The notes under the pieces are model-generated. The model was not told the DNA's origin, made no database searches, and was given only the letters and a program-made list of their open reading frames with translations. A program made the position numbers and the translations under genes. Positions 5,927 to 58,894 of a stretch of DNA of 58,894 nucleotides are shown in pieces (positions within the stretch are counted from its first letter, which is position 1; each line of letters begins with the position of its first letter). This stretch comes from a virus. Lineage: Duplodnaviria > Caudoviricetes. Where the stretch lies: positions 1 through 58,894 of IMG/VR virus record IMGVR_UViG_3300044799_000109; one strand, 5' to 3'.

Positions 5927-6238
5927 ATGATGCGGGATCTCGACGCGATCAGGAAGGGGTTCCGGGTGCCTGACGACGCGGACGCGCTGATCGGAGAGGT
6001 CGAGAGGTTGCGGGCGGCACTGGAGATTGCCCGCCACAACCTGGTCACGCTGAATGGACTCGAAATCGTGGACATGGCTGCGTATGGTCGGGCTCGAGAG
6101 ATGGGTGCCGACGCAAACGGCGCCTGGGATGTGTTGTGCGACTCTGGCTGGACGATTGATGAATCAGAAACCATCGCCGCGATTGATGTGGTTCTACCGG
6201 CGGCGAGGGAGAAGGCGCTAGGAGGCGACAATGGTTGA
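5927..6238 (+). CDS. Hypothetical protein
   Basis: Coupled to the 6231 ORF; LIGEVERLR motif common in phage early genes. Confidence 0.55.
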   Translation: MMRDLDAIRKGFRVPDDADALIGEVERLRAALEIARHNLVTLNGLEIVDMAAYGRAREMGADANGAWDVLCDSGWTIDESETIAAIDVVLPAAREKALGGDNG

Positions 6239-6710
6239 GAGGGAGTGGCGGCGGGACTGGCGGGATCTGAAACATGGTCTAGACGATGATCTGGACTTGG
6301 TCGAGCGTGTGCCTGCTTTCGTGTTGGTGAGAATGCTGGTTGCTGCCGATGTCGCACTGAAAGCGGCCGAGGTCGAGCGGGGCCAACTTCGCCTCGATCT
6401 GGCGGAGGCGCTGCTGCACCTCGACGAGTGCCACCAGCGGCGGAAGGCCGAGGGCGAGCAACTGCGCCAGGAACTCCACAACACGCAGGCAAGGATGAAG
6501 GAAGCCCAGGAGGAGGTCGAGCAACTTCGCCTCAAGTTGTCCGACGCCGAGCAGCAGGCCAGCAACGCGATCACCTGGCAGCAGGCGATGGTGCGGGCGG
6601 AGGGCGAGAACAGGCTGCTACGGGCGGCACTGGGCGACGACGATGGATGTGGTGGCGATTGGCTGAAGGGACGGGCCGAGAAGGTGTTGGGCAAGGAGGT
6701 CCCATCGTGA
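6231..6710 (+). CDS. Coiled-coil hypothetical protein
   Basis: AGGAGG RBS; heptad-rich sequence. Confidence 0.65.
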   Translation: MVEREWRRDWRDLKHGLDDDLDLVERVPAFVLVRMLVAADVALKAAEVERGQLRLDLAEALLHLDECHQRRKAEGEQLRQELHNTQARMKEAQEEVEQLRLKLSDAEQQASNAITWQQAMVRAEGENRLLRAALGDDDGCGGDWLKGRAEKVLGKEVPS

Positions 6711-6772
6711 GCAGCGATCGCCTAGCGTTCCTCGACCGGGAGGCGGCTTTCTGGGCGAGGTGCCCTAGGTGA
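6707..6772 (+). pseudogene. Truncated original N-terminus of gene 7616-7831
   Basis: MSSDRLAFLDREAAFW versus ADRLAFLDREAQFW at 7616. Confidence 0.8.
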
Positions 6773-7490
6773 CCCACCGCCAAGAATGGAATCTCACCAG
6801 CCTCTCGATTGCGGTTGGCCCTACATGATACTGCCTCGCAAGCGCAGCTTTGTTTGTGCTTCCGTTCTTGAATCTGGCTCTGATTTCTCGCACCAGGTCG
6901 GGGGTCAGATGGGCGTTATAAGTATTCATGCGCCTGGCTCCAGTGATCTTGTGTCGCCCTTTGGCCCAGCAATCCCGGTTGTTATCAGGGACCGTTCCGG
7001 CGAAGAGGTGGTCAGGCCGCACGCACGGTGGGTTGTCGCAGTGATGGCAGGAGAGCATTCCAGGTCCGAGCGGACCATAGGTAAGTTCATAACTCACCCG
7101 ATGAGCAGGGGTTGTCGGGCCTCTAGGGTCTATTCGGACATCACCGTAGCCTTGGATGCTACGGCCGCCTTTCCAGAGCCAACAGTCTCCTGTCTTGTCA
7201 ACCTGACTCCAGAACCAGTCTGCGAAAGGTATATCAGGGCGGCGGCCGTTGTGTCTGGCCATGAATCTCTGTACCGGGTACTTTCGCCGGACAGCAAACG
7301 ACTCTCCACAGCCGCAGGCACAGATGCGTATTTCTCCAGTCAATGGTCGACCACGGCCCTTATTGGCGGGTACGCCACCCCGCATGTTGTGGCCGGAGAT
7401 GAAGCGTCGTCTCTTCCGGGCACAGGCTGTGATGGGGAGTGGGTGGCCGCAACCGCAGGCGCAGAGGGGCATGGTAGAATCGGGGAGCAT
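6765..7490 (-). CDS. HNH homing endonuclease with N-terminal CACGCG repeats and C-terminal HTH (cassette 1)
   Basis: FWSQVDKTGDCWLWKG, AHRVSY, CHHCDNPPCVRPDHL; GGAGG RBS. Confidence 0.92.
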   Translation of the reverse strand: MLPDSTMPLCACGCGHPLPITACARKRRRFISGHNMRGGVPANKGRGRPLTGEIRICACGCGESFAVRRKYPVQRFMARHNGRRPDIPFADWFWSQVDKTGDCWLWKGGRSIQGYGDVRIDPRGPTTPAHRVSYELTYGPLGPGMLSCHHCDNPPCVRPDHLFAGTVPDNNRDCWAKGRHKITGARRMNTYNAHLTPDLVREIRARFKNGSTNKAALARQYHVGPTAIERLVRFHSWRWVT

Positions 7491-7559
7491 GGCGAACCTC
7501 CATTCGCTGTGCCACGCCCCCGGCTGTTACTAGCAGCGCGGGGGTTTCGTGCTGCCCGG

Positions 7560-7569
7560 ATTATAGCAC
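7560..7569 (-). promoter_or_regulatory. Extended -10 promoter (TGcTATAAT) of the cassette 1 HNH gene
   Basis: Reverse complement GTGCTATAAT; same motif upstream of all four antisense endonucleases. Confidence 0.75.
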
Positions 7570-7615
7570 AAAGGTTCTGGCAGCATCAAACTCTAATTCG
7601 AGCGGAGGTAAAGGC

Positions 7616-7831
7616 ATGAACGGGGGCAATGCGGCAGATCGTTTGGCCTTTTTGGACCGTGAGGCACAGTTTTGGGTGGCTGCCCTTGCGCTCGACGAGC
7701 AGGGCGCCCTCGCCTGTCGGGCCAAGTTGGACCAACTCGACGCCGAGAGGGTCGAGATCGTCCGGCACCAGGACGCCGTCCGCCACATCCTGCCGCAGAG
7801 GGCAAGGCTGGCAGAGCGGCTGGGAGTGTGA
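7616..7831 (+). CDS. Hypothetical protein with cassette-supplied recoded N-terminus
   Basis: GGAGG RBS; first ~20 codons are AT3-rich relative to the rest. Confidence 0.7.
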   Translation: MNGGNAADRLAFLDREAQFWVAALALDEQGALACRAKLDQLDAERVEIVRHQDAVRHILPQRARLAERLGV

Positions 7832-8032
7832 CGTGGTATCCCTGACGGTCTGGTCGCGGGAAGGCCGCTCCTGGGTGATCGAGGCCCCCACCTACGGTCA
7901 GGCTTTCGACCTGGCGACCGAGGCCGGCGCTGTCCGTGCGGTCGACGGGACCGGCTGGATAGAGCGCTGGCTGTGGGGCGAGTGGGTCGGCGTCTGCCGG
8001 CAGTCTAGGTCGACAGAGCGGCGGGGAGTGAG

Positions 8033-8362
8033 ATGATCTTCGAGGCACTCTGGGCATCGGCGCAACGTGGTGAACTGATTTTGGTGGAGGGGGGCTACTG
8101 TAGATATAGGGTCAGGCGAGACGGGCAGTTGACCATCTGCGAGATCATCGTACTGCCAGCCTACCAGCATCGGGGAGTTGGGCGGACTATCATTGCCGGA
8201 TTGGGCGAGGTGGCTCGAAAGCGGAACTGCACAAGTATCTTGGCGAAGTGTCCGGCTGATCTGGCCGCCAACGGATTCTATGAGCATCTCGGATTCAGCC
8301 AGGAAGCAATTGAGCACACCCGGACTGGTCGCGCGATCAATGTCTGGAGGCTGGCGTGCTGA
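8033..8362 (+). CDS. GNAT-family acetyltransferase
   Basis: VLPAYQHRGVGR motif A; ANGFYEHLGF. Confidence 0.85.
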   Translation: MIFEALWASAQRGELILVEGGYCRYRVRRDGQLTICEIIVLPAYQHRGVGRTIIAGLGEVARKRNCTSILAKCPADLAANGFYEHLGFSQEAIEHTRTGRAINVWRLAC

Positions 8363-9426: not shown

Positions 9427-9738
9427 GCGTTGGCTACGTGGCCAGCGTTGGCTCATTTCGGGAGGCAGAGTGCGGACGATCTTCGCCAGTGCACCGCCGC
9501 CCTTGCATCCCGGCGAGAGCATCCTCGGCTCTGCCAATATCGAAGACCTGATGACGCAGTGGGTGATCGAGGAGGGTGGGGATGTGCCAGCGTTGCCGGA
9601 CGGAGTTGTGCAGGTAGCCGAGGGGCCTATGCAGGTAGCGACTGCCCGCCGCCACGCTCCCCGAGCCCGCACCCGACGCCGGCACGACGGGCGCCTGCGC
9701 AAAGCCTGCCCTGAGCGAAGCCGAAGGGTGAGGTGCTG

Positions 9739-10146
9739 ATGGCGAGGGGTCACCCACACGATGACCAGACGAAGGCCGAAGTCATGGCGGCCCTTCTCGC
9801 CGGTCAGTCTGTCAGCGAAGTGGCCCGCCAATTCCGCCTCAGCCGTAATACCGTCAAGTCCTGGCGGGCTGCGTTGGGCATCGGTTCACCCAAGGTTGAC
9901 CAGCAAAAAGCGGAAGAGTTTGGAGACTTGATTGGTCGCTACCTCCGGGAAAACCTCACTACGCTGGCGGTTCAAGCCGAGCAGTTCCGCGACACGGCCT
10001 GGCTCAAGGCACAAGCAGCCAGTGAAGTCGCTGTGCTGCACGGCGTCCTTACAGACAAAGCCATTCGGCTTCTCGAAGCTCTCCAGTCCGGCAACGAAGA
10101 CGCGCCAACCGGCGACGCCGGCGGCACTGGCGATCCTACTCAGTGA
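9739..10146 (+). CDS. terS: Terminase small subunit (HTH type)
   Basis: N-terminal HTH (SVSEVARQFRLSRNTVKSW); directly upstream of terL. Confidence 0.7.
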   Translation: MARGHPHDDQTKAEVMAALLAGQSVSEVARQFRLSRNTVKSWRAALGIGSPKVDQQKAEEFGDLIGRYLRENLTTLAVQAEQFRDTAWLKAQAASEVAVLHGVLTDKAIRLLEALQSGNEDAPTGDAGGTGDPTQ

Positions 10147-10156
10147 GGGGCGCTGG

Positions 10157-11434
10157 ATGATGGCCCAGCATCTGGACGCATTGTCCGACGCTCTGTTGGG
10201 CACCGTGCGCCAGGGCGGACGGCTGATGGTCGAGATGCCACCGCGCCACGGCAAGAGCGAGCTCGTCTCCCACTGGCTGCCGGTCTGGTTCCTCGAACGC
10301 TGGCCGAGAAAGCGTGTCATCCTGTCTTCCTACGAGGCCGACTTCGCCGCGTCCTGGGGACGCAAGGTCCGCAATTCAATCACCGAGAACGCCGAGCGCC
10401 TGTCTGTTCGGGTTTCAGATGACAGTGCAGCGGCCTTCCGGTGGGATACTACGGTCGGGGGCGGGATGGTGACTGCTGGGGTGGGCGGTCCGATCACCGG
10501 CCGCGGTGCCGATCTGCTCATTGTGGATGACCCGGTCAAGAATGCCGAGGAGGCTGACTCGCCTACTTTCCGTGAGCGTGTGTGGGAATGGTGGCGCACC
10601 ACGGCGTACACCCGGCTCGAGCCCGGCGGCGCAGCGGTCCTGGTCATGACGCGCTGGCATCAGGACGATCTTGCCGGCCGCCTGCTGGCAGAGATGCGAC
10701 AGGGGGGCGAGCGGTGGGAGGTACTGAGCCTGCCGGCCCTTGCTGAGGGGGCCGATCCACTTGGCCGAGGTCTGGATGAACCTCTCTGGCGCGAGAGGTA
10801 CGACGCAGCGGCCTTGGCTCGCATTCGGCAGGTGATAGGTTCGCGGGCCTGGGCAAGTCTGTATCAGCAGCAGCCGCTACCCGCCGAGGGCAACCTGTTC
10901 AAGCGCCAGTGGTTCCCGATCGTGGACGCCGCACCCGCCGACTGCAAACGTGTGCGCTACTGGGACTTCGCCGCTACTGAGGCGAGGCCCGGTTCTGATC
11001 CCGACTGGACGGCAGGCGTGCTACTCGGCGTCAAGGACGGCATCTACTATGTCCAGGACGTGCGCCACCTCCGGGCATCGCCCCTCGGCGTCGAGTCGCT
11101 GGTCAAGCAGACGGCGGACCTGGATACCCGAGCCGTGCCCATCTGGATCGAGCAGGAGCCGGGCAGTTCCGGCGTCAACACCATCGACCACTACACTAGG
11201 CAGGTGCTCACCGGCTGGAACGTCCGGGGCGATCGCGTGACCGGCAACAAGCTAGAGCGGATGGGGCCACTTGCCGCGCAGGCCGAGGCGGGCAACGTCC
11301 GGCTACTCCGCGCCGCCTGGAACGGGGCGTTTCTGGACGAGGCCGAGTCTATCCCGCAGGGCCACGACGACATGCTCGACGCTACGGCGGGGGCGCTTCA
11401 GAAACTCTCGCGCCAGGGGGTGGGGTTTGGCTAG
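10157..11434 (+). CDS. terL: Terminase large subunit (start uncertain; frame open from 9932)
   Basis: MPPRHGKS Walker A, LLIVDDP Walker B, MTRWHQDD, WDFA and HDDMLDA nuclease motifs. Confidence 0.95.
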   Translation: MMAQHLDALSDALLGTVRQGGRLMVEMPPRHGKSELVSHWLPVWFLERWPRKRVILSSYEADFAASWGRKVRNSITENAERLSVRVSDDSAAAFRWDTTVGGGMVTAGVGGPITGRGADLLIVDDPVKNAEEADSPTFRERVWEWWRTTAYTRLEPGGAAVLVMTRWHQDDLAGRLLAEMRQGGERWEVLSLPALAEGADPLGRGLDEPLWRERYDAAALARIRQVIGSRAWASLYQQQPLPAEGNLFKRQWFPIVDAAPADCKRVRYWDFAATEARPGSDPDWTAGVLLGVKDGIYYVQDVRHLRASPLGVESLVKQTADLDTRAVPIWIEQEPGSSGVNTIDHYTRQVLTGWNVRGDRVTGNKLERMGPLAAQAEAGNVRLLRAAWNGAFLDEAESIPQGHDDMLDATAGALQKLSRQGVGFG

Positions 11435-29948: not shown

Positions 29949-30387
29949 TCGGGTTGTAGGCTCGACTCACGGTTTACCGCAGGACATCAAGACGCGCCTG
30001 AAAGATATGGGCGACGGAACCCATGCCCAGGTGGTGGCTGCCACCAGACCTGCCGTTCCGAGCATCGCAGGCGACAACCACGCCCCTGCCGACAACACCT
30101 CCGCCGTAGTCACCTATGCATCAGGCGGTGGGCAGACGAAGCACTACCTGTACGACATCTTCTGGGGCTACGACTCCGACTTGACTGTTGTGGGCACGCT
30201 CAAGGTCGAGGATGTGTCCGGCACCACGGTCTTCGGCCCTCTCCCGATCACCAAGAGCGGGCCGGGCTTCTTGCACTTCGACCCGCCGATCGTGTCGAGC
30301 GCGGTCGCCACGGCCATGATCGTCACGCTCACCACGGGCGGGGCCGCGGTCCAGGGCGTGCTTTCGTGTAGACATGAAACGAAATAG
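29941..30387 (+). CDS. Putative virion protein; C-terminus supplied by cassette 3
   Basis: GGAGG RBS; ends CRHETK-stop, duplicated as CRHEVK-stop at 31106-31126. Confidence 0.7.
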   Translation: MADRVVGSTHGLPQDIKTRLKDMGDGTHAQVVAATRPAVPSIAGDNHAPADNTSAVVTYASGGGQTKHYLYDIFWGYDSDLTVVGTLKVEDVSGTTVFGPLPITKSGPGFLHFDPPIVSSAVATAMIVTLTTGGAAVQGVLSCRHETK

Positions 30388-31105
30388 GTTAGGTCACATG
30401 TTTCCAGGTCTGGCCGGACAGGATATCGCTGATCGCCCCTTGGGTGACAGGGAACAGGTCCGCTATCCGCATCTGGTTGAGCCCTTGCTCGTGCAGAAGA
30501 CGGATGGCCCGAACGTCGCTCTCGGTGAGTTTCGCCATGCTGTGACCCTCGCCTCGTGGCACTCGCTCAGGGTGGCGATGATTGCCGTTTCTGTCTCCAC
30601 TGGCAGGGTTGTTGCGACCCTTCTGAACGCAGTCAAGGCGATTGTCGAGGTCGGTGCCAAGGAACAGATGCTCAGGGCGGACGCAACGGCGATAGGAGAT
30701 GTCCCAAACGGGATAGCTGGCATCGCACTTGTGGCAGACATTCATACCTGGAGGCACAGGGCCATAAGTGAGTTCCCAGGAGAGGACGTGGGCAGGCTTC
30801 CGAACACCACCCCAACGAATGCCCCCGTAGCCATTACTGCCTATCCCCCCAAGCCACATCCAGCACTCGCCAGTTCTGTCTACCTTGACCCAGAAGGATT
30901 CCGGCACCGGCACCTGTCGCTTGCTGGCGTTGTAGCAACCCCACCCGCAATAAACGACGCGGATTGCGACGCCATCATGTTTCGTCTGGTAGGGCCATCG
31001 CTGGAAAGACTGCCCGCAGATGGGGCAGGTAAAGAGCAGTTTGGACTTAGAACGGAGGCCCATATGACTCTCCAATCGACTGATCGCACCGATTATAGCA
31101 TACTC
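30365..31105 (-). mobile_element. Antisense homing-endonuclease cassette 3 (boundaries approximate)
   Basis: Recoded C-terminal duplication flanks an antisense HNH gene; TGcTATAAT at 31092-31100 on the minus strand. Confidence 0.75.
30389..31063 (-). CDS. HNH homing endonuclease (cassette 3)
   Basis: FWVKVDRTGECWMW, AHVLSW, CHKCD...CVRPEHLFLGT, AKLTE C-terminal HTH; GGAG RBS. Confidence 0.92.
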   Translation of the reverse strand: MGLRSKSKLLFTCPICGQSFQRWPYQTKHDGVAIRVVYCGWGCYNASKRQVPVPESFWVKVDRTGECWMWLGGIGSNGYGGIRWGGVRKPAHVLSWELTYGPVPPGMNVCHKCDASYPVWDISYRRCVRPEHLFLGTDLDNRLDCVQKGRNNPASGDRNGNHRHPERVPRGEGHSMAKLTESDVRAIRLLHEQGLNQMRIADLFPVTQGAISDILSGQTWKHVT

Positions 31106-31128
31106 TGTCGCCACGAGGTCAAATAGAG

Positions 31129-32679
31129 ATGGGGCTCTCGGGACTGAGCGGGCTCTCGGGACTGAGCGGGATAGCGGGCGGTGCAATCCCACCCGTCGTC
31201 TACGACACCTTCACTCGCGCCAACAGCAACACGACTCTCGGCAACGCCGAGACTGGACAGGCGTGGGTTGCATACGCTGGCGTCTGGGGCATCAGCGGCA
31301 ATCAGGCGTACACCGTGACCTCCGATGGTGACTGGCAGACGTTCGCAGGCATTGACTCAGGTCTATCGGACTGCCTGGTACAGGCTCGATTCCCGGACAT
31401 CAAGGATTCCTGTCGCTTGCGGGTACGGGCGACGGACAACGCCAATCACATCCTGCTCCAGGTCGAAGGGGACGGCACGCGGTTGTATACCCGCATCGCG
31501 GGCACGTTCGCCAACATCGGTTTCATCGAGGACAAGCCCGTCGATGGCGACACCGTAGGGTTGCTGCTCAAGGGCGGCTCTGTCACCATCCAGATCAACG
31601 GCATCAACAAGGGCACGTTCGAAAGCACGTTCAATCAGACGGCCACCATCCACGGCATCGGCGGCGGTGACAGCGGAGCTAACGCGACACTGATAGACGA
31701 TTTCAGGGTCCAGTGGCTGACTTCGCCGATGTGGGACTTCCGTGGGGTCAATCTGCACGGAATACATCGGGGCGATCTCGCGTCGGATGAGGTCTCTACG
31801 TGGTTGGACCTGATGCCGTCCTACGGGGTCAACTGGATCGCCATCAATACTCACTACTGGCAGACCAATAAGGACAGCACCACCATCTACGCCGATGCCA
31901 CGCACTCGCCGCTGGACGCCGAGATCACGGCCAGTATTGCCGATTGCAAGGCGCGTGGCTTCAAGGTCATGCTCAAGCCGCTACTTGACCTGGCGACTCC
32001 CAATCCCACGTCGGACTGGCGCGGTCTTATCGGGACGAACTTTACCGAACAGAACTGGACTGACTGGTTTGCGTCGTACAGCGCCTACATTCTGAACTAC
32101 GCGGCGCTCGCGCAGGCTGGCGGCGTGGATATGTTCTGCATCGGGACGGAACTCACCATACCGTCGTACCGAGAGGCACAGTGGCGAGTCCTGGTGGCTG
32201 CGATACGGCAGGTATACACGGGACCGCTGATCTTCGCTCATATGTTCGATTACTTCGCTGATTTCACCTGGTGGGACGCACTCGACTTCGTTGGGATAGA
32301 CGCCTACAACCCCTTGTCGGATCACGATAGCCCGACGCTTGCGGAGATATGGTCATGGTGGCCCGCGCAATACGCCACTATCAAGGCGGCGGTTATCCCT
32401 ACTGGGCGTCCATTGCTGCTGACTGAGTTCGGATACCCGAGCGCTGATCCAGCAGCGATCACGCCGTGGGTGGTTACCTTCCCGGAAGGTACGAACGTGA
32501 ACACGACGCTCCAGGCCAACCTCTATCAGGCGCTACTCGATCAATTCGCGGTGGATAGTTTTGTCTATGGCGGATTCGTTTGGAGCATCAGCAAGGAAGC
32601 GATCTTCGGGGGCGACGATTACGCGCACTGTCCGTTCGGCAAAGCGGCTGGAACGCTGTTACAGGCTCGGTGGACGTAG
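31129..32679 (+). CDS. Lectin-like N-terminal domain plus TIM-barrel glycoside hydrolase (GH113-like)
   Basis: GFKVMLKP, WRG, FCIGTEL, FVGIDAY, LLTEFGY. Confidence 0.8.
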   Translation: MGLSGLSGLSGLSGIAGGAIPPVVYDTFTRANSNTTLGNAETGQAWVAYAGVWGISGNQAYTVTSDGDWQTFAGIDSGLSDCLVQARFPDIKDSCRLRVRATDNANHILLQVEGDGTRLYTRIAGTFANIGFIEDKPVDGDTVGLLLKGGSVTIQINGINKGTFESTFNQTATIHGIGGGDSGANATLIDDFRVQWLTSPMWDFRGVNLHGIHRGDLASDEVSTWLDLMPSYGVNWIAINTHYWQTNKDSTTIYADATHSPLDAEITASIADCKARGFKVMLKPLLDLATPNPTSDWRGLIGTNFTEQNWTDWFASYSAYILNYAALAQAGGVDMFCIGTELTIPSYREAQWRVLVAAIRQVYTGPLIFAHMFDYFADFTWWDALDFVGIDAYNPLSDHDSPTLAEIWSWWPAQYATIKAAVIPTGRPLLLTEFGYPSADPAAITPWVVTFPEGTNVNTTLQANLYQALLDQFAVDSFVYGGFVWSISKEAIFGGDDYAHCPFGKAAGTLLQARWT

Positions 32680-45146: not shown

Positions 45147-45437
45147 ATGGACAGCATCATCGAGTTAGCCCTGGCGGCAACCGCCGTGGCGAAGACGCTG
45201 ATTGACCTGCTCAGGCTAGCTACCGACCTGCCGCGCTGGGGTCCGCCTGTCGGGGCCATCGTGGTAGGCATTGCCACCGTGACGCTGCTGGCCCTCGCCA
45301 ATGGCCTGCCGTTCACGACGCAGGGGACGGCGCAGGTAATCCTAGCGGGCATCTTGGCAGGGGGGTCGGCTGTCGGCGTCACCGTACTCGCACGCACGGC
45401 TGACAGCACGGTGGTAACGAGGCGCGGCGGACCGTGA
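45147..45437 (+). CDS. Putative holin
   Basis: Three hydrophobic segments; directly before the endolysin start. Confidence 0.7.
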   Translation: MDSIIELALAATAVAKTLIDLLRLATDLPRWGPPVGAIVVGIATVTLLALANGLPFTTQGTAQVILAGILAGGSAVGVTVLARTADSTVVTRRGGP

Positions 45438-46185
45438 CTCGACTAGGTCTTCATTTGCCGAACCGCCGGCTACTGCCCGGCGAACTCGCACAACTCGTCG
45501 AGCTAACTGAGCCAGCGCCAACTCTCACCGCGCACGATACGAGAGATCTGAGTCTGACTCATGCCGAATCCGTCAACCAAACGGCGGTAAGATGCACCCT
45601 CCTCCCGCCGCTTGCGGATGGCTCGGACAATCTCGGGCGTCACCTTGGCATTCCACTGACTCGTGCCCAGCGGAAACCTCTGGCGCCCCTTGTCGATCAT
45701 GTCTCGCACGTTGTCAGCTTGGCGACCGACAAAGAGGTGTGCGGGATTGACGCACTCGGGGTTGTCGCAAGCATGGCAGACTACCGCCCCAGCAGGTATT
45801 GGCCCATTGTGAAGTTCATAGGAGAACCGATGTGCCCGCAGTTGCCGCCGTGGACGTGTGAGGAGGGGCAGGTAGCTGTAGCCACGCCGGTCTTTTGCGC
45901 CCTTCCAGAGCCAACAACCCGGCGTCTTCTCGACCCGCCTCCAAAACATCATGACCAATTCATCTTGGGAGTGGGGGAGGCGGTTGGGGAATCTGATAGG
46001 ATTGGAGCGCATGGCGAACCTCCAATTCGCTGTGCCATGCCCCCGGCCGTCGCAAGCGGCGCGGGGGTTTCAGGTTGCCCACATTGTAGCACCCCTGTTC
46101 GGAGGGAGCAACGATGACCCGGCTCGGGATGCATCTACCAAACCGACCGTTCCAATCCGGCGAGATGGAGAGGATCATCGCCCTG
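45434..46185 (-). mobile_element. Antisense homing-endonuclease cassette 2 with duplicated endolysin N-terminus (boundaries approximate)
   Basis: MTRLGLHLPNR..GE at 45434 versus MTRLGMHLPNR..GE at 46114; TGcTACAAT at 46083-46092 on the minus strand. Confidence 0.8.
45503..46012 (-). CDS. HNH homing endonuclease (cassette 2)
   Basis: FWRRVEKTPGCWLWKG, AHRFSY, CHACDNPECVNPAHL; GGAGG RBS. Confidence 0.92.
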   Translation of the reverse strand: MRSNPIRFPNRLPHSQDELVMMFWRRVEKTPGCWLWKGAKDRRGYSYLPLLTRPRRQLRAHRFSYELHNGPIPAGAVVCHACDNPECVNPAHLFVGRQADNVRDMIDKGRQRFPLGTSQWNAKVTPEIVRAIRKRREEGASYRRLVDGFGMSQTQISRIVRGESWRWLS

Positions 46186-57284: not shown

Positions 57285-57491
57285 ATGACCAATGGACCGA
57301 ACCCAAAGGCAGAGGTTATGCCGGCGGCGACTCTGACCCTCTGGTGTGACGAGTGCCAGCACCCGATCGGCGCGTTCGACCTGCTGACTGACCACCTGGC
57401 GGCGGTGCTCTTCGCCGCCCGCAAGGAGCACGCGAAGGCAAAGCACGACTGGCACGAGCGGGAGATGATCCTGGTCGGCGAGGGCCGGTGA
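57285..57491 (+). CDS. Small Zn-finger-like protein
   Basis: AGGAGG RBS; CxxC..H..H. Confidence 0.6.
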   Translation: MTNGPNPKAEVMPAATLTLWCDECQHPIGAFDLLTDHLAAVLFAARKEHAKAKHDWHEREMILVGEGR

Positions 57492-58084
57492 TGCTGCAAT
57501 CCGTTCGGGTCATGGGGGAACTGGAAGCCCGGCAATGCCTTGACCGCATACGCGCCGGGCTAATATCCGTCGCCACTGAGGTTCGCCGGTTCCACGACGG
57601 GGAGGGCTGGCGCGCCCTCGGTTATCTGACCTTCGAGGAGTGCGTCGGCAGGGAATTGGGCATCAGCAAGCAGCATGGCTATCGACTGCTTGAGGCAAGC
57701 CACATTCGAGAGGAACTAGCCCATAGCTTGCCCGCTAGTAACATCGATGTTACTAGCTTCCAGCCTAGCGATACCCAACTGCTAGAACTGCTGCCACTGC
57801 CGGCGAATCGGCGCGTCGAGATTGCCCGGCAGGTGGACTTCTCCACCAAGACCGTCCGCGAGCTCCGTCAGATCGTCAGGGAAGCTAAGGCGACTCTGGA
57901 TATCAAGGTCCAGGAGACTAGGGCCGAGCAGCCGCCCTTGCCGCGCCCGTCCGTTCCTGCGTTGCCCCAAGATGTGCGGATCGAGGTCGCGGACGCTGGC
58001 GAGATGCCGCTCTCCGATGACTCCATTGATCTGATCGTGACCAGCCCGCCCTACGGGTTGTTTGATGCGGAGGGAGAAGAATGA
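57488..58084 (+). CDS. DNA methyltransferase N-terminal part (HTH-like region plus catalytic SPPY) of a split gene
   Basis: WRALGYLTFEEC..GISKQHGYRL; DDSIDLIVTSPPYG then early stop. Confidence 0.85.
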   Translation: MMLQSVRVMGELEARQCLDRIRAGLISVATEVRRFHDGEGWRALGYLTFEECVGRELGISKQHGYRLLEASHIREELAHSLPASNIDVTSFQPSDTQLLELLPLPANRRVEIARQVDFSTKTVRELRQIVREAKATLDIKVQETRAEQPPLPRPSVPALPQDVRIEVADAGEMPLSDDSIDLIVTSPPYGLFDAEGEE

Positions 58085-58737
58085 TTCAACTGCCACATCT
58101 GCCCGTACAGTTCCTGCCGCAGAGCGACCAATTGAGGCGGCTTGAGATGCCCACGATCTCTCTTAAGCCCCTGGCTAGCGACTCTTTCGACGAGAACCTT
58201 GGGCACGCGTACCCAACTCAGGCTACGCGACGAGCGGCGCAGAGAGACCAACGTGCCATTTCTGATTGCTTGGCTGACCATTCCACGCGACCGATAACCA
58301 AGCGCGTCCGCGACCTGCGACACGTCCATCAATTCGCCTTCCTCCCAATCTGGGAACTCGCGGACAAACCAGTAGGATGCGAGGGACATCTGCCCGTTGG
58401 CCTTCGTTCTATGGAGATCCAAGACAAGTTGTGCTTGCTCATGCTTGATGCGGAGGTAGGGCAAGAGAGCCTCACAGGCTCGTGCGGCCATTTGATTAGT
58501 GATGCTGAAACGGTAGAGCCATCGTCCGTTCGGCACGGAGGGCTTGGTCATCTGAACGATGCCGCCGAAGGTTTGCCTAAGCAACTCGGGAACCTGGGGC
58601 GTGACTTGCTTAAGCCCGAGCCGCTCATCGAAGTCAGGTGCCCAACCGTACCGTGTAGCTGTCCTCTTGATGCTGATGTAGCCGTCAGCGTCAACGGCCC
58701 CCGCGAGGTAAGAAAACAGCAGTGCATCTGTAGTCAT
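58051..58737 (-). CDS. LAGLIDADG homing endonuclease (cassette 4)
   Basis: YLAGAVDADGYI, FGG, LLPYLRIKHEQA; GGAGG RBS. Confidence 0.92.
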   Translation of the reverse strand: MTTDALLFSYLAGAVDADGYISIKRTATRYGWAPDFDERLGLKQVTPQVPELLRQTFGGIVQMTKPSVPNGRWLYRFSITNQMAARACEALLPYLRIKHEQAQLVLDLHRTKANGQMSLASYWFVREFPDWEEGELMDVSQVADALGYRSRGMVSQAIRNGTLVSLRRSSRSLSWVRVPKVLVERVASQGLKRDRGHLKPPQLVALRQELYGQMWQLNHSSPSASNNP

Positions 58738-58792
58738 ATCGCCTCCCCTATGTGGCCCAGTAACTATTATAGCACAGGAGGGGCATGAAATG
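58061..58792 (-). mobile_element. Antisense homing-endonuclease cassette 4, splitting the methyltransferase (boundaries approximate)
   Basis: Inserted between PPYGL and KGY; TGcTATAAT at 58766-58775 on the minus strand; supplies AGGAGG and ATG for the C-terminal part. Confidence 0.8.
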
Positions 58793-58894
58793 AAGGGCTA
58801 CGCGGCAAGCAAGGATACATCGTCGGACTGGACAGCGAAGATGCGAGACTGGCTGACCGAGATGCACAGGGTTCTGAAGCCTGGCGGGCGTCTG
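58743..58894. repeat. Terminal direct repeat, right copy
   Basis: Matches 1-152. Confidence 0.95.

Follow-up and report, generated by a model that had tools for sequence, protein, structure and literature searches.

How does a phage gene stay whole when an endonuclease gene lies inside its coding region? The question is raised by a locus near the left end of IMG/VR virus record IMGVR_UViG_3300044799_000109 (Duplodnaviria; Caudoviricetes), whose full length of 58,894 bases was analysed and is called the window here. At this locus, named cassette 1, an HNH endonuclease gene lies antisense within the start of a small gene encoding 71 amino acids (aa), and the start of that gene is present on both sides of the nuclease gene, in two different spellings. 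The usual teaching on homing elements lists introns, inteins and free-standing genes in intergenic positions. Cassette 1 is best explained as an end-replacing homing cassette, a unit made of a nuclease gene and an imported gene start, with the native start left behind; the probability of this reading is put at about three in four. A preliminary description of the same DNA had proposed a non-splicing insertion that restores its target gene with a replacement N-terminus, and this part of it draws support from the anatomy of the locus, from homologues of the gene, from a break in codon usage and from sister systems.

Anatomy of cassette 1

The features of the locus, from left to right, are the following.

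6231-6710, plus strand: upstream phage gene of 159 aa from the list of open reading frames (ORFs); it ends in ATCGTGA, and its TGA overlaps the GTG of the stub
6693-6699, plus strand: native ribosome-binding site (RBS) AAGGAGG of the displaced gene start, 7 bases before GTG 6707
6707-6772, plus strand: GTG-started stub of 21 codons, VSSDRLAFLDREAAFWARCPR and stop; it begins VSSDRLAFLDREAAFW and continues with the out-of-family residues ARCPR and stop
6765-7490, minus strand: HNH_3 (His-Me finger) endonuclease gene, 241 aa, with its stop codon within the last codons of the stub
7491-7559, minus strand: 5' leader of the HNH mRNA, 69 bases, with a G+C-rich hairpin and a small hairpin presenting GGAGG just before the ATG
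7560-7589, minus strand: sigma-70-type promoter with an extended -10 element (TTGATG, 18-base spacer, TG-n-TATAAT), from a promoter scan (10/12 matches with TG)
7604-7608, plus strand: new RBS GGAGG, 7 bases before ATG 7616
7616-7687, plus strand: replacement 5' end, ATG and 23 codons (MNGGNAADRLAFLDREAQFWVAAL), with AT-richer third positions; the repeat with the stub covers about 7631-7686
7688-7831, plus strand: resident remainder of the 71-aa gene, with native codon usage, read through from the new start

The two copies of the gene start lie where the preliminary description had placed them. The core of the stub, GAT CGC CTA GCG TTC CTC GAC CGG GAG GCG, is found at 6716-6745, and the second copy, GAT CGT TTG GCC TTT TTG GAC CGT GAG GCA, at 7637-7666. 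The new ATG opens a complete 71-aa ORF (MNGGNAADRLAFLDREAQFWVAALALDEQ..., 7616-7831), the first 24 codons of which repeat the stub peptide with mostly synonymous changes, so that the same peptide does reappear behind a new GGAGG and is joined to the rest of the gene, as had been claimed. The first residues differ as well, reading MNGGNAA at the new start and VSS in the stub. The copies were compared by BLOSUM62 local score, with all 3918 six-frame 60-aa windows of the stretch as the null; the stub and the new start score 67, while the best unrelated window scores 38. Within a core of 13 codons, four are identical, eight are synonymous and one is non-synonymous, with 13 of the 39 bases differing. 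At the DNA level the repeats are about 56 bases long and 67% identical (33% diverged). Because the codons are recoded between the copies, the nucleotide match is not significant on its own: the best of 2954 random windows also scores 36.

If a gap of one base is allowed, the similarity in DNA extends to TGCCCT (6761-6766 and 7681-7686) and so reaches the HNH stop codon in the first copy and codon 24 of the new ORF in the second. The insertion point lies after codon 16-20 of the native frame, inside the coding region. Between the HNH gene and its flanking copies there are 0 non-coding bases on one side and 125 on the other (7490 to ATG 7616), and these 125 bases hold the promoter and a hairpin. 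The DNA taken to be imported runs from about 6756/6767 to 7686, approximately 0.92 kb, and comprises the nuclease gene, promoter, leader, RBS, ATG and 23 codons. The 159-aa protein encoded upstream has no family match in Pfam or PHROG.

The presumed native and imported copies

A full HMMER search of 1.84 billion representatives returns three homologues of the small protein, 65-72 aa in length (P0059, P0060 and P0061). P0059 (72 aa) is 59% identical to the 71-aa ORF and aligns with it end to end (E 6.2e-15). The motif [DE]R[LA]A[FY]LDRE..FW occurs once in each of the three homologues, 4-8 residues after the start. Since the homologues carry this motif at the N-terminus, both copies are judged from the alignment to be bona fide starts of a small gene family, and ATG 7616 to be the correct start of the gene. 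In the public collection the same protein is given as 59 aa from TTG 7652, a version in which the conserved N-terminal motif is lost; the cassette seems to have misled the gene caller into this start.

Codon usage separates the parts of the locus. The G+C content at third codon positions (GC3) is 17/21 in the stub, 14/24 (0.58) in the new start, 42/47 in the gene body after codon 24 and 149/241 (0.62) in the HNH gene; the upstream gene has 31/40 in its last 40 codons. The second copy is indeed AT-richer, as the preliminary description had stated, and the new start differs from the rest of the gene with a Fisher p of 0.0046. Codon usage changes exactly where the repeat ends, which fits a native stub and a native gene body separated by an imported block that extends from the stop codon of the HNH gene to codon 24. 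The new start has the look of a foreign allele that was brought in. The earlier term "recoded" is apt for the synonymous differences, but it need not mean that the start was rewritten in place; the low GC3 of the new start and its different first residues make it look imported instead. The shift in third positions may come from an AT-richer donor or, alternatively, from fast evolution of the carried end under mutation bias. In cassette 2 of the same genome and in the viral contigs L018 and L020, all treated below, the carried end has a lower GC3 than the nuclease gene.

A blastn search in distant mode for a cassette-free allele, over 50,697 phage records, gave only a 70-base match within the HNH gene of Myxococcus phage Mx9. 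Four loci with the neighbouring DUF6610 gene (53-60% identity) carry neither the 71-aa gene nor the 159-aa gene nor an HNH gene.

The endonuclease gene and its expression signals

The 241-aa protein matches Pfam HNH_3 (PF13392) at 29.7 bits against a curated cut-off of 24.8 (E 4.8e-7), as well as nine PHROG endonuclease families (best E 3.1e-24), and it has 183 relatives in viral contigs. Residues C148, H149, C151, D152, C156, H161 and N170, which include the catalytic His and Asn and the zinc-binding Cys residues, are invariant in 41 aligned sequences. Since the ORF is intact, has its own promoter and RBS and keeps these seven residues, the nuclease gene is probably functional. An AlphaFold model of the protein (predicted local distance difference test, pLDDT, 73.2) has a disordered Cys-rich N-terminus, a core at about residues 83-181 and a C-terminal helix-turn-helix (HTH) at residues 191-241, the last of which matches HTH domains. 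The best structural match of the modelled core is I-HmuI (Z 7.1, root-mean-square deviation 3.4, 89 residues), and the next is I-PpoI (Z 6.9).

The N-terminal third of the nuclease (7226-7490, residues 1-88; pLDDT below 50) holds two Cys clusters of the CxCGCG type, CACGCGH and CACGCGE, and on the model it may form a pair of small zinc ribbons for DNA recognition. This Cys-rich part is absent from the paralogue at 45503-46012.

The leader at 7491-7559 resembles that of the same paralogue (46013-46082), with 58 of 69 bases identical, compared with 256 of 434 in the coding core; a stretch of 63 leader bases is 88.9% identical to 46009-46071. The similarity could reflect a shared regulatory element or a recent gene conversion. 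Both leaders fold into a G+C-rich hairpin and a small hairpin that exposes the Shine-Dalgarno sequence next to the ATG; compared with shuffled sequences, their folding energies (-30.3 and -30.9 kcal/mol) do not stand out significantly (z -1.1 and -0.7). A terminator scan of 6200-8200 finds 0 sites.

Other endonuclease elements of the genome

The two ends of the record overlap by 152 bases (1-152 and 58743-58894), of which 150 are identical and two, at positions 127 and 129, are mismatched. The genome is therefore probably complete, and circular or circularly permuted. The collection classifies the record as linear and 81% complete.

By tblastn and a Pfam scan, the genome contains two further HNH genes that are paralogues of the first (identity 37-43%), and a fourth endonuclease gene is of the LAGLIDADG type. 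The preliminary description had counted four elements of one design. The count holds for the three HNH_3 cassettes, two of which replace gene starts and one a gene end, but not for the LAGLIDADG gene, at which no duplication is seen in the two adjoining ORF ends. The features of these elements are listed here.

30362-31126: cassette 2, at a gene end, with replacement end, antisense HNH_3 gene, promoter and displaced native end
30362-30387: replacement end of cassette 2, LSCRHETK and stop, which closes a 148-aa gene (...VLSCRHETK and stop)
30389-31066, antisense: HNH_3 gene of cassette 2, with promoter TGCTATAAT at 31092-31100
31103-31126: displaced native end of cassette 2, LCRHEVK and stop, two bases before the ATG of the next gene at 31129
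45434-46185: cassette 3, at a gene start between holin and endolysin, with stub, antisense HNH_3 gene, promoter, new RBS and ATG
45434-45502, plus strand: stub of cassette 3, MTRLGLHLPNRRLLPGELAQLVE, GTG-started and overlapping the holin stop
45503-46012, antisense: HNH_3 gene of cassette 3, with promoter TGCTACAAT at 46083-46091
46114-46185, plus strand: new start of cassette 3, MTRLGMHLPNRPFQSGEMERIIAL..., with ATG 46114 and its own new RBS; this segment forms the repeat with the stub
57488-58084: N part of a methylase, 198 aa, ending ...SPPYGLFDAEGEE and stop; its last 11 codons overlap the C-terminus of the nuclease gene on the other strand
58051-58737, minus strand: fourth endonuclease gene, LAGLIDADG-type, 228 aa, with promoter TGCTATAAT at 58766-58774
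58790 onwards, equal to 48-677: C part of the methylase, 209 aa, with its own GGAGG and ATG, covering positions 20-220 of the 221 in the PF01555 profile

Cassette 2 replaces the end of a gene. Its new end has a GC3 of 2/8 and its stub 5/7. A word-index search with the 148-aa protein gives 48 matches including the window's own; 25 of the other 47 were aligned, and in these 25 homologues the family C-terminus reads ...VLSCRHE[VA][KR]. All seven related cassette-free metagenome loci lack an HNH gene and have the stop codon followed by the next gene within 0-6 bases, and in four of the seven that next gene starts MG[LG]LSGLSG, as it does in the window. The stub of cassette 2 agrees with the family C-terminus, and since the stop codon and the next gene adjoin in each of these seven loci, the stub and its downstream junction represent, by this comparison, the native arrangement. 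A search with the 148-aa protein finds no relatives in viral contigs.

In cassette 3 the stub and the new start score 66 in the protein comparison, and the next best score is 44. The N-termini of the endolysin family align with both copies, and the endolysin query finds no related viral loci.

The fourth element has a different layout. Its ORF matches I-CvuI (E 4.1e-4 over residues 4-111) and phrog_5046 (E 8.5e-16; labelled "HNH endonuclease" in the library), and it has no Pfam LAGLIDADG match. It interrupts an N6_N4 DNA methylase gene immediately behind the SPPY motif, leaving two ORFs. No duplication was seen on reading the two methylase ORF ends, and the element looks like a genes-in-pieces case, not an end replacement.

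The endonuclease genes share a promoter motif, TGCTAYAAT, which was counted over the window and over 100 shuffles. A motif scan places it on the minus strand at 24-32, 7560-7568, 31092-31100, 46083-46091 and 58766-58774. Two of these five occurrences are one site in the terminal overlap; 0.18 occurrences are expected, and none of the 100 shuffles reaches five. Every copy of the motif in the genome precedes one of the four endonuclease genes. These selfish genes, all antisense, belong to two unrelated nuclease families and carry one promoter type.

The same design in other viral contigs

The 183 HNH relatives in viral contigs were screened for duplicated flanks. Eighty loci were kept, 74 of them with both flanks, and the 100 bases beyond the HNH stop were compared at the protein level with the 700 bases before the conserved core, with 1500 mismatched pairs as the null. 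The maximum of the null is 54 for antisense and 52 for sense arrangements, and it is exceeded by two contigs, L018 (90, antisense) and L020 (88, sense). By the same measure, cassette 1 scores 69, cassette 3 scores 74 and cassette 2 scores 44 (empirical p 0.017).

In L018/L089 an HNH_3 gene 42% identical to that of cassette 1 lies in a head-completion gene (PF05521). The functional end of this gene, ...AARIGARSYETVREVICREII and stop, abuts the HNH stop codon, and the stub, VARVGARSYETVRECICREVV and stop, directly precedes the next gene. Five relatives (L091-L095; protein 86-90% identical) have neither the HNH gene nor a second copy. In four cassette-free alleles (L091 and L093-L095) the 3' end matches the stub at 58-61 of 66 bases, compared with 37-40 of 66 for the functional end, and the stub matches these native ends codon for codon. 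The gene body is 85-86% identical to the cassette-free alleles. The stub (GC3 0.90) and the gene body (0.83) are richer in third-position G+C than the HNH gene (0.73), and the new end has the lowest value, 0.48. Judged by these alleles, the stub of L018 is native and the functional copy is foreign. The preliminary description had proposed an alignment with cassette-free homologues as a check, and on this sister system the outcome is favourable to it, since relatives without the HNH gene are also without the duplicate and the stub matches the native end.

In L020 the HNH_3 gene (1555-2280) has the same orientation as its host gene. The gene-attached copy overlaps the HNH start codon and a native-looking stub follows the HNH stop, with a GC3 of 0.47 in the functional copy, 0.77 in the stub and 0.74 in the body. 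With 34-43% identity, the relatives of this host gene are too remote to tell a native from a foreign copy.

A model for the spread of the cassette

If cassette 1 is an end-replacing homing cassette, the gene would now be translated from the imported start, giving a full-length 71-aa protein without splicing, and the native RBS, the GTG and the first 16 codons would be a dead stub upstream. During mixed infection the nuclease would, as is inferred for yeast WHO elements, cut cassette-free alleles in or next to the differently spelled region. The break would be repaired from the cassette-bearing genome, and the nuclease gene would be copied together with the carried start. The upstream gene and the stub would form the left homology arm, and the gene body beyond 7687 the right arm. 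The 33% divergence of the imported start would confer resistance to cutting, would block the recombination between repeats that deletes the nuclease gene, and would confine the crossover to that gene's far side. By analogy with the yeast elements, the carried start is probably cleavage-resistant. That the insertion destroys its own recognition site, as the preliminary description had proposed, is at this stage a prediction. The first insertion was probably a one-sided, partly illegitimate break repair from an AT-richer, more distant donor, in which the nuclease gene lay just upstream of the donor's own copy of the gene.

Taken together, stub, junction and recoded copy point to where the nuclease probably has its target, which makes its specificity directly testable. 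Such cassettes also have consequences for annotation: gene callers mis-start the genes concerned, stubs are mistaken for small genes, and imported ends blur the phylogenies of the host genes.

Evidence against homing and alternative explanations

The assignment of native and foreign copies holds, on the comparisons given above, in two sister systems, L018 and cassette 2. Several observations weigh against the homing cassette. The stub retains 16 native codons, and a recognition site wholly inside them would leave the genome cleavable; protection of the genome from its own enzyme requires a recognition site that spans the junction. In cassette 3 the codon bias is reversed (GC3 13/23 in the stub and 19/24 in the new start) and non-synonymous differences affect 12 of 23 codons, so that the rule of a native stub and a foreign start fits poorly; stub decay or a different history of co-conversion is a possible cause of the reversal. 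The structural match of the nuclease is middling (Z below 8), with a Foldseek E of 0.1 and no match at E up to 0.001, and a sequence search of the PDB with the HNH protein gives 0 matches at E up to 1. A word-index protein search for homologues of the 71-aa protein finds only the window's own protein, a search with the family alignment finds no relatives in viral contigs or genome contigs, and a degenerate 29-base pattern for the cassette-free allele has 0 matches in viral contigs; a cassette-free DNA allele of the gene was not found in any collection searched. The contigs of two peat metagenomes, which drop rare variants, show no joint that skips cassette 1. Finally, 72 of the 74 other HNH_3 loci have no flank duplicate, and the design is therefore not a general property of the nuclease family.

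Several of these points are shared by the strongest rival, in which the locus is a repair scar only. The HNH gene would have entered a single time, through sloppy one-sided repair of a double-strand break or through illegitimate recombination between diverged phages; the duplicate would be a by-product, the stub would have no role, and the unit would not home, or would no longer do so. In the homing of T4 introns, one-sided illegitimate repair with junctions at microhomologies is known, according to the accessible part of a review (PMC2988022), and the missing presence/absence polymorphism in the contigs of the two metagenomes, the many HNH_3 loci without a duplicate and the decayed look of the cassette 3 stub all suit a scar. 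The recurrence of the layout argues the other way, since it is found in three paralogous HNH genes of one 59-kb genome and in the unrelated contigs L018 and L020. Each time the host gene is restored with precision, and host coding sequence adjoins the stop codon of the nuclease gene, as expected if the unit spreads. Survivorship of non-lethal scars could yield equal recurrence and precision. On balance a mere scar is considered unlikely, with a probability of roughly one in six.

An ordinary exchange of modules is a good deal less probable and is given little weight. Here the HNH protein would have a function other than homing, for example in packaging or defence, and its gene would have arrived with the start of the neighbouring gene, joining two diverged alleles at a recombination point between mosaic phages. 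HNH proteins do also act in packaging (cited in the part of PMC12724721 that was available), and the imported start has a GC3 like that of the HNH gene, as would any co-transferred block. Against this, the HNH gene is far from the terminase gene (9932-11434), the three paralogues are dispersed and each lies within the end of a different gene, the closest structural match of the model is a homing enzyme, I-HmuI, and homologous exchange leaves no truncated duplicate.

A spliced element (group I or II intron, or intein) or a metagenome assembly error is barely credible, for it has in its favour only the general habit of HNH genes of living in introns, whereas Rfam at gathering thresholds gives 0 matches in the 58,894-base window, the nuclease gene is read from the opposite strand, an in-frame stop closes the stub, the second copy is equipped with an RBS and ATG of its own, repeats only 67% identical are unable to mislead an assembler, and nearly identical pieces at 6869-7019 and 7380-7639 are present in a second metagenome sample, whose coverage of the stretch is partial. 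The statement of the preliminary description that there is neither an intron core nor an intein is upheld: an intein was rejected on the antisense frame, and a group I or II intron on the same Rfam result, stop codon and start signals together with the available space, 125 bases on one side and 0 on the other. By its DNA anatomy, the gene of cassette 1 is whole without splicing; among sequencing runs, a search for the sequence lists two DNA runs and no RNA run. A transposon-type target-site duplication was also rejected, on the length (about 56 bases) and 33% divergence of the repeats and the lack of a transposase.

Comparison with known systems

Replacement of a gene end by a resistant copy has been worked out only for the WHO elements of yeasts and described for fungal mitochondrial mORFs; it is hardly described in phages. 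The comparisons in this section are confined to those portions of the cited papers that were accessible.

The WHO elements of Torulaspora and Lachancea yeasts home into FBA1 (Coughlan et al. 2020, PMC7282813). The unit consists of a nuclease gene and a resistance-conferring gene end, and the leftover fragment is called the essential homology region; the mechanism is proposed, and has been partly demonstrated in yeast (PMC7282813). A preprint (Osborne et al. 2026, 10.64898/2026.08.13.744650) treats WHO elements as a third homing category, unique and rare. The likeness to cassette 1 is close. In both, a diverged copy of one host-gene end accompanies the nuclease gene, that end is replaced, and no splicing is involved; the displaced end, presumed native in cassette 1, stays beyond the nuclease gene as a fragment, which in WHO elements is a homology arm. 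The differences lie in the parts. The WHO nucleases are LAGLIDADG/intein-like proteins with a zinc finger, related to HO, whereas that of cassette 1 is HNH_3. The WHO end is the 3' part of a nuclear gene and hundreds of bases long, whereas that of cassette 1 is the 5' end of a phage gene, 24 codons with their own RBS and start, and its nuclease gene is antisense with its own bacterial promoter. Allele-specific cleavage has been shown for WHO6; for cassette 1 it is predicted by analogy. In the way it works cassette 1 resembles WHO elements, yet its HNH_3 nuclease places it outside the WHO protein family.

The mORF gene hybrids of fungal mitochondria are known from atp6, atp9, cox2 and nad3 of Glomus (Beaudet et al. 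2013, PMC3630166) and from atp6 of Allomyces macrogynus (Paquin et al. 1994, cited in PMC3630166). There the inserted and native copies are 64-81% identical in DNA and nearly identical in protein, and the native copy matches close relatives (PMC3630166). As in cassette 1, a foreign gene end has been inserted together with an endonuclease ORF and the native end has been displaced, in this case downstream. Unlike cassette 1, the mORF hybrids are C-terminal only, use LAGLIDADG or GIY-YIG nucleases, are often in frame and in the same orientation as the gene, and are mitochondrial.

Among phages, SegF, SegG and MobE of the T-even group resemble the nuclease of cassette 1 in being free-standing endonucleases with their own expression signals, presumed to spread by break repair with co-conversion of the flanks (PMC2988022). 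Those genes are intergenic and have no duplicated gene end, whereas cassette 1 lies inside a coding region with a diverged repeat of about 56 bases and a carried copy. One-sided illegitimate break repair is documented in T4, and the word stem "duplicat" does not occur in the accessible part of the same review of T4 mobile DNA (PMC2988022). The genes-in-pieces nrdA/mobE of Aeh1 and gene 60/mobA of T4 have an endonuclease inside a coding region, like the fourth element of the present genome (PMC2988022); the gene of cassette 1 differs from them in that it is not split, a single ORF encoding the whole protein. A further phage parallel is gene 60 of mycobacteriophage YungJamal, a leftward (antisense) gene at a junction of tail genes, with imperfect 24-bp direct repeats (Cresawn et al. 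2015, PMC4351075). The copy in the upstream gene shows mostly synonymous changes and the other copy is identical to cassette-free relatives. The gene there has no known function, the repeat is C-terminal and much shorter, and the authors read it as recombination, not homing (PMC4351075). No flank duplication is described in the available parts of a paper on a Xanthomonas phage (PMC2248197) and of one on HNH genes of Skunavirus (PMC12724721). Searches of the phage literature, within the text that was accessible, gave no account of end replacement as a homing strategy; YungJamal gene 60 is the only case, an anecdote left without interpretation.

What is new in cassette 1 is the combination of a phage host, an HNH nuclease and the replacement of a 5' end with translation signals supplied by the element. 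The genome has a value of its own in that three HNH_3 cassettes and one contrasting split gene, all in 59 kb, present alternative lifestyles of nucleases within coding regions. A wider proposal, which is tentative and is given somewhat less than an even chance, is that free-standing endonuclease genes of phages form a widespread homing class that is neither intron nor intein. Each member would pair a nuclease gene with a copy of one or the other end of its target gene, diverged and immune to cleavage, with its own RBS and start codon at 5' ends; the displaced native end would serve as a homology arm, and AT-shifted third positions in the carried ends would be the footprint of an arms race. In four of the five cassettes examined, the replacement ends have a GC3 of 0.25-0.58, compared with 0.74-0.90 in the body and stub. 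If the proposal is true, this shift is a simple signature with which such elements can be found at scale, and the 2026 view of WHO elements as rare and unique to yeasts is overturned.

Further features of the genome

The genome has a G+C content of about 64%, and the GC3 of its long genes is 0.82-0.83. A scan of the window for transfer RNA genes finds 0. At 9646-9728 about 49 bases match other, unrelated contigs in both metagenomes, which then diverge from the phage; one of these contigs is 4150 bases long with a word depth of about 9. The shared segment could be, for example, the core of an attachment site or a repeat.

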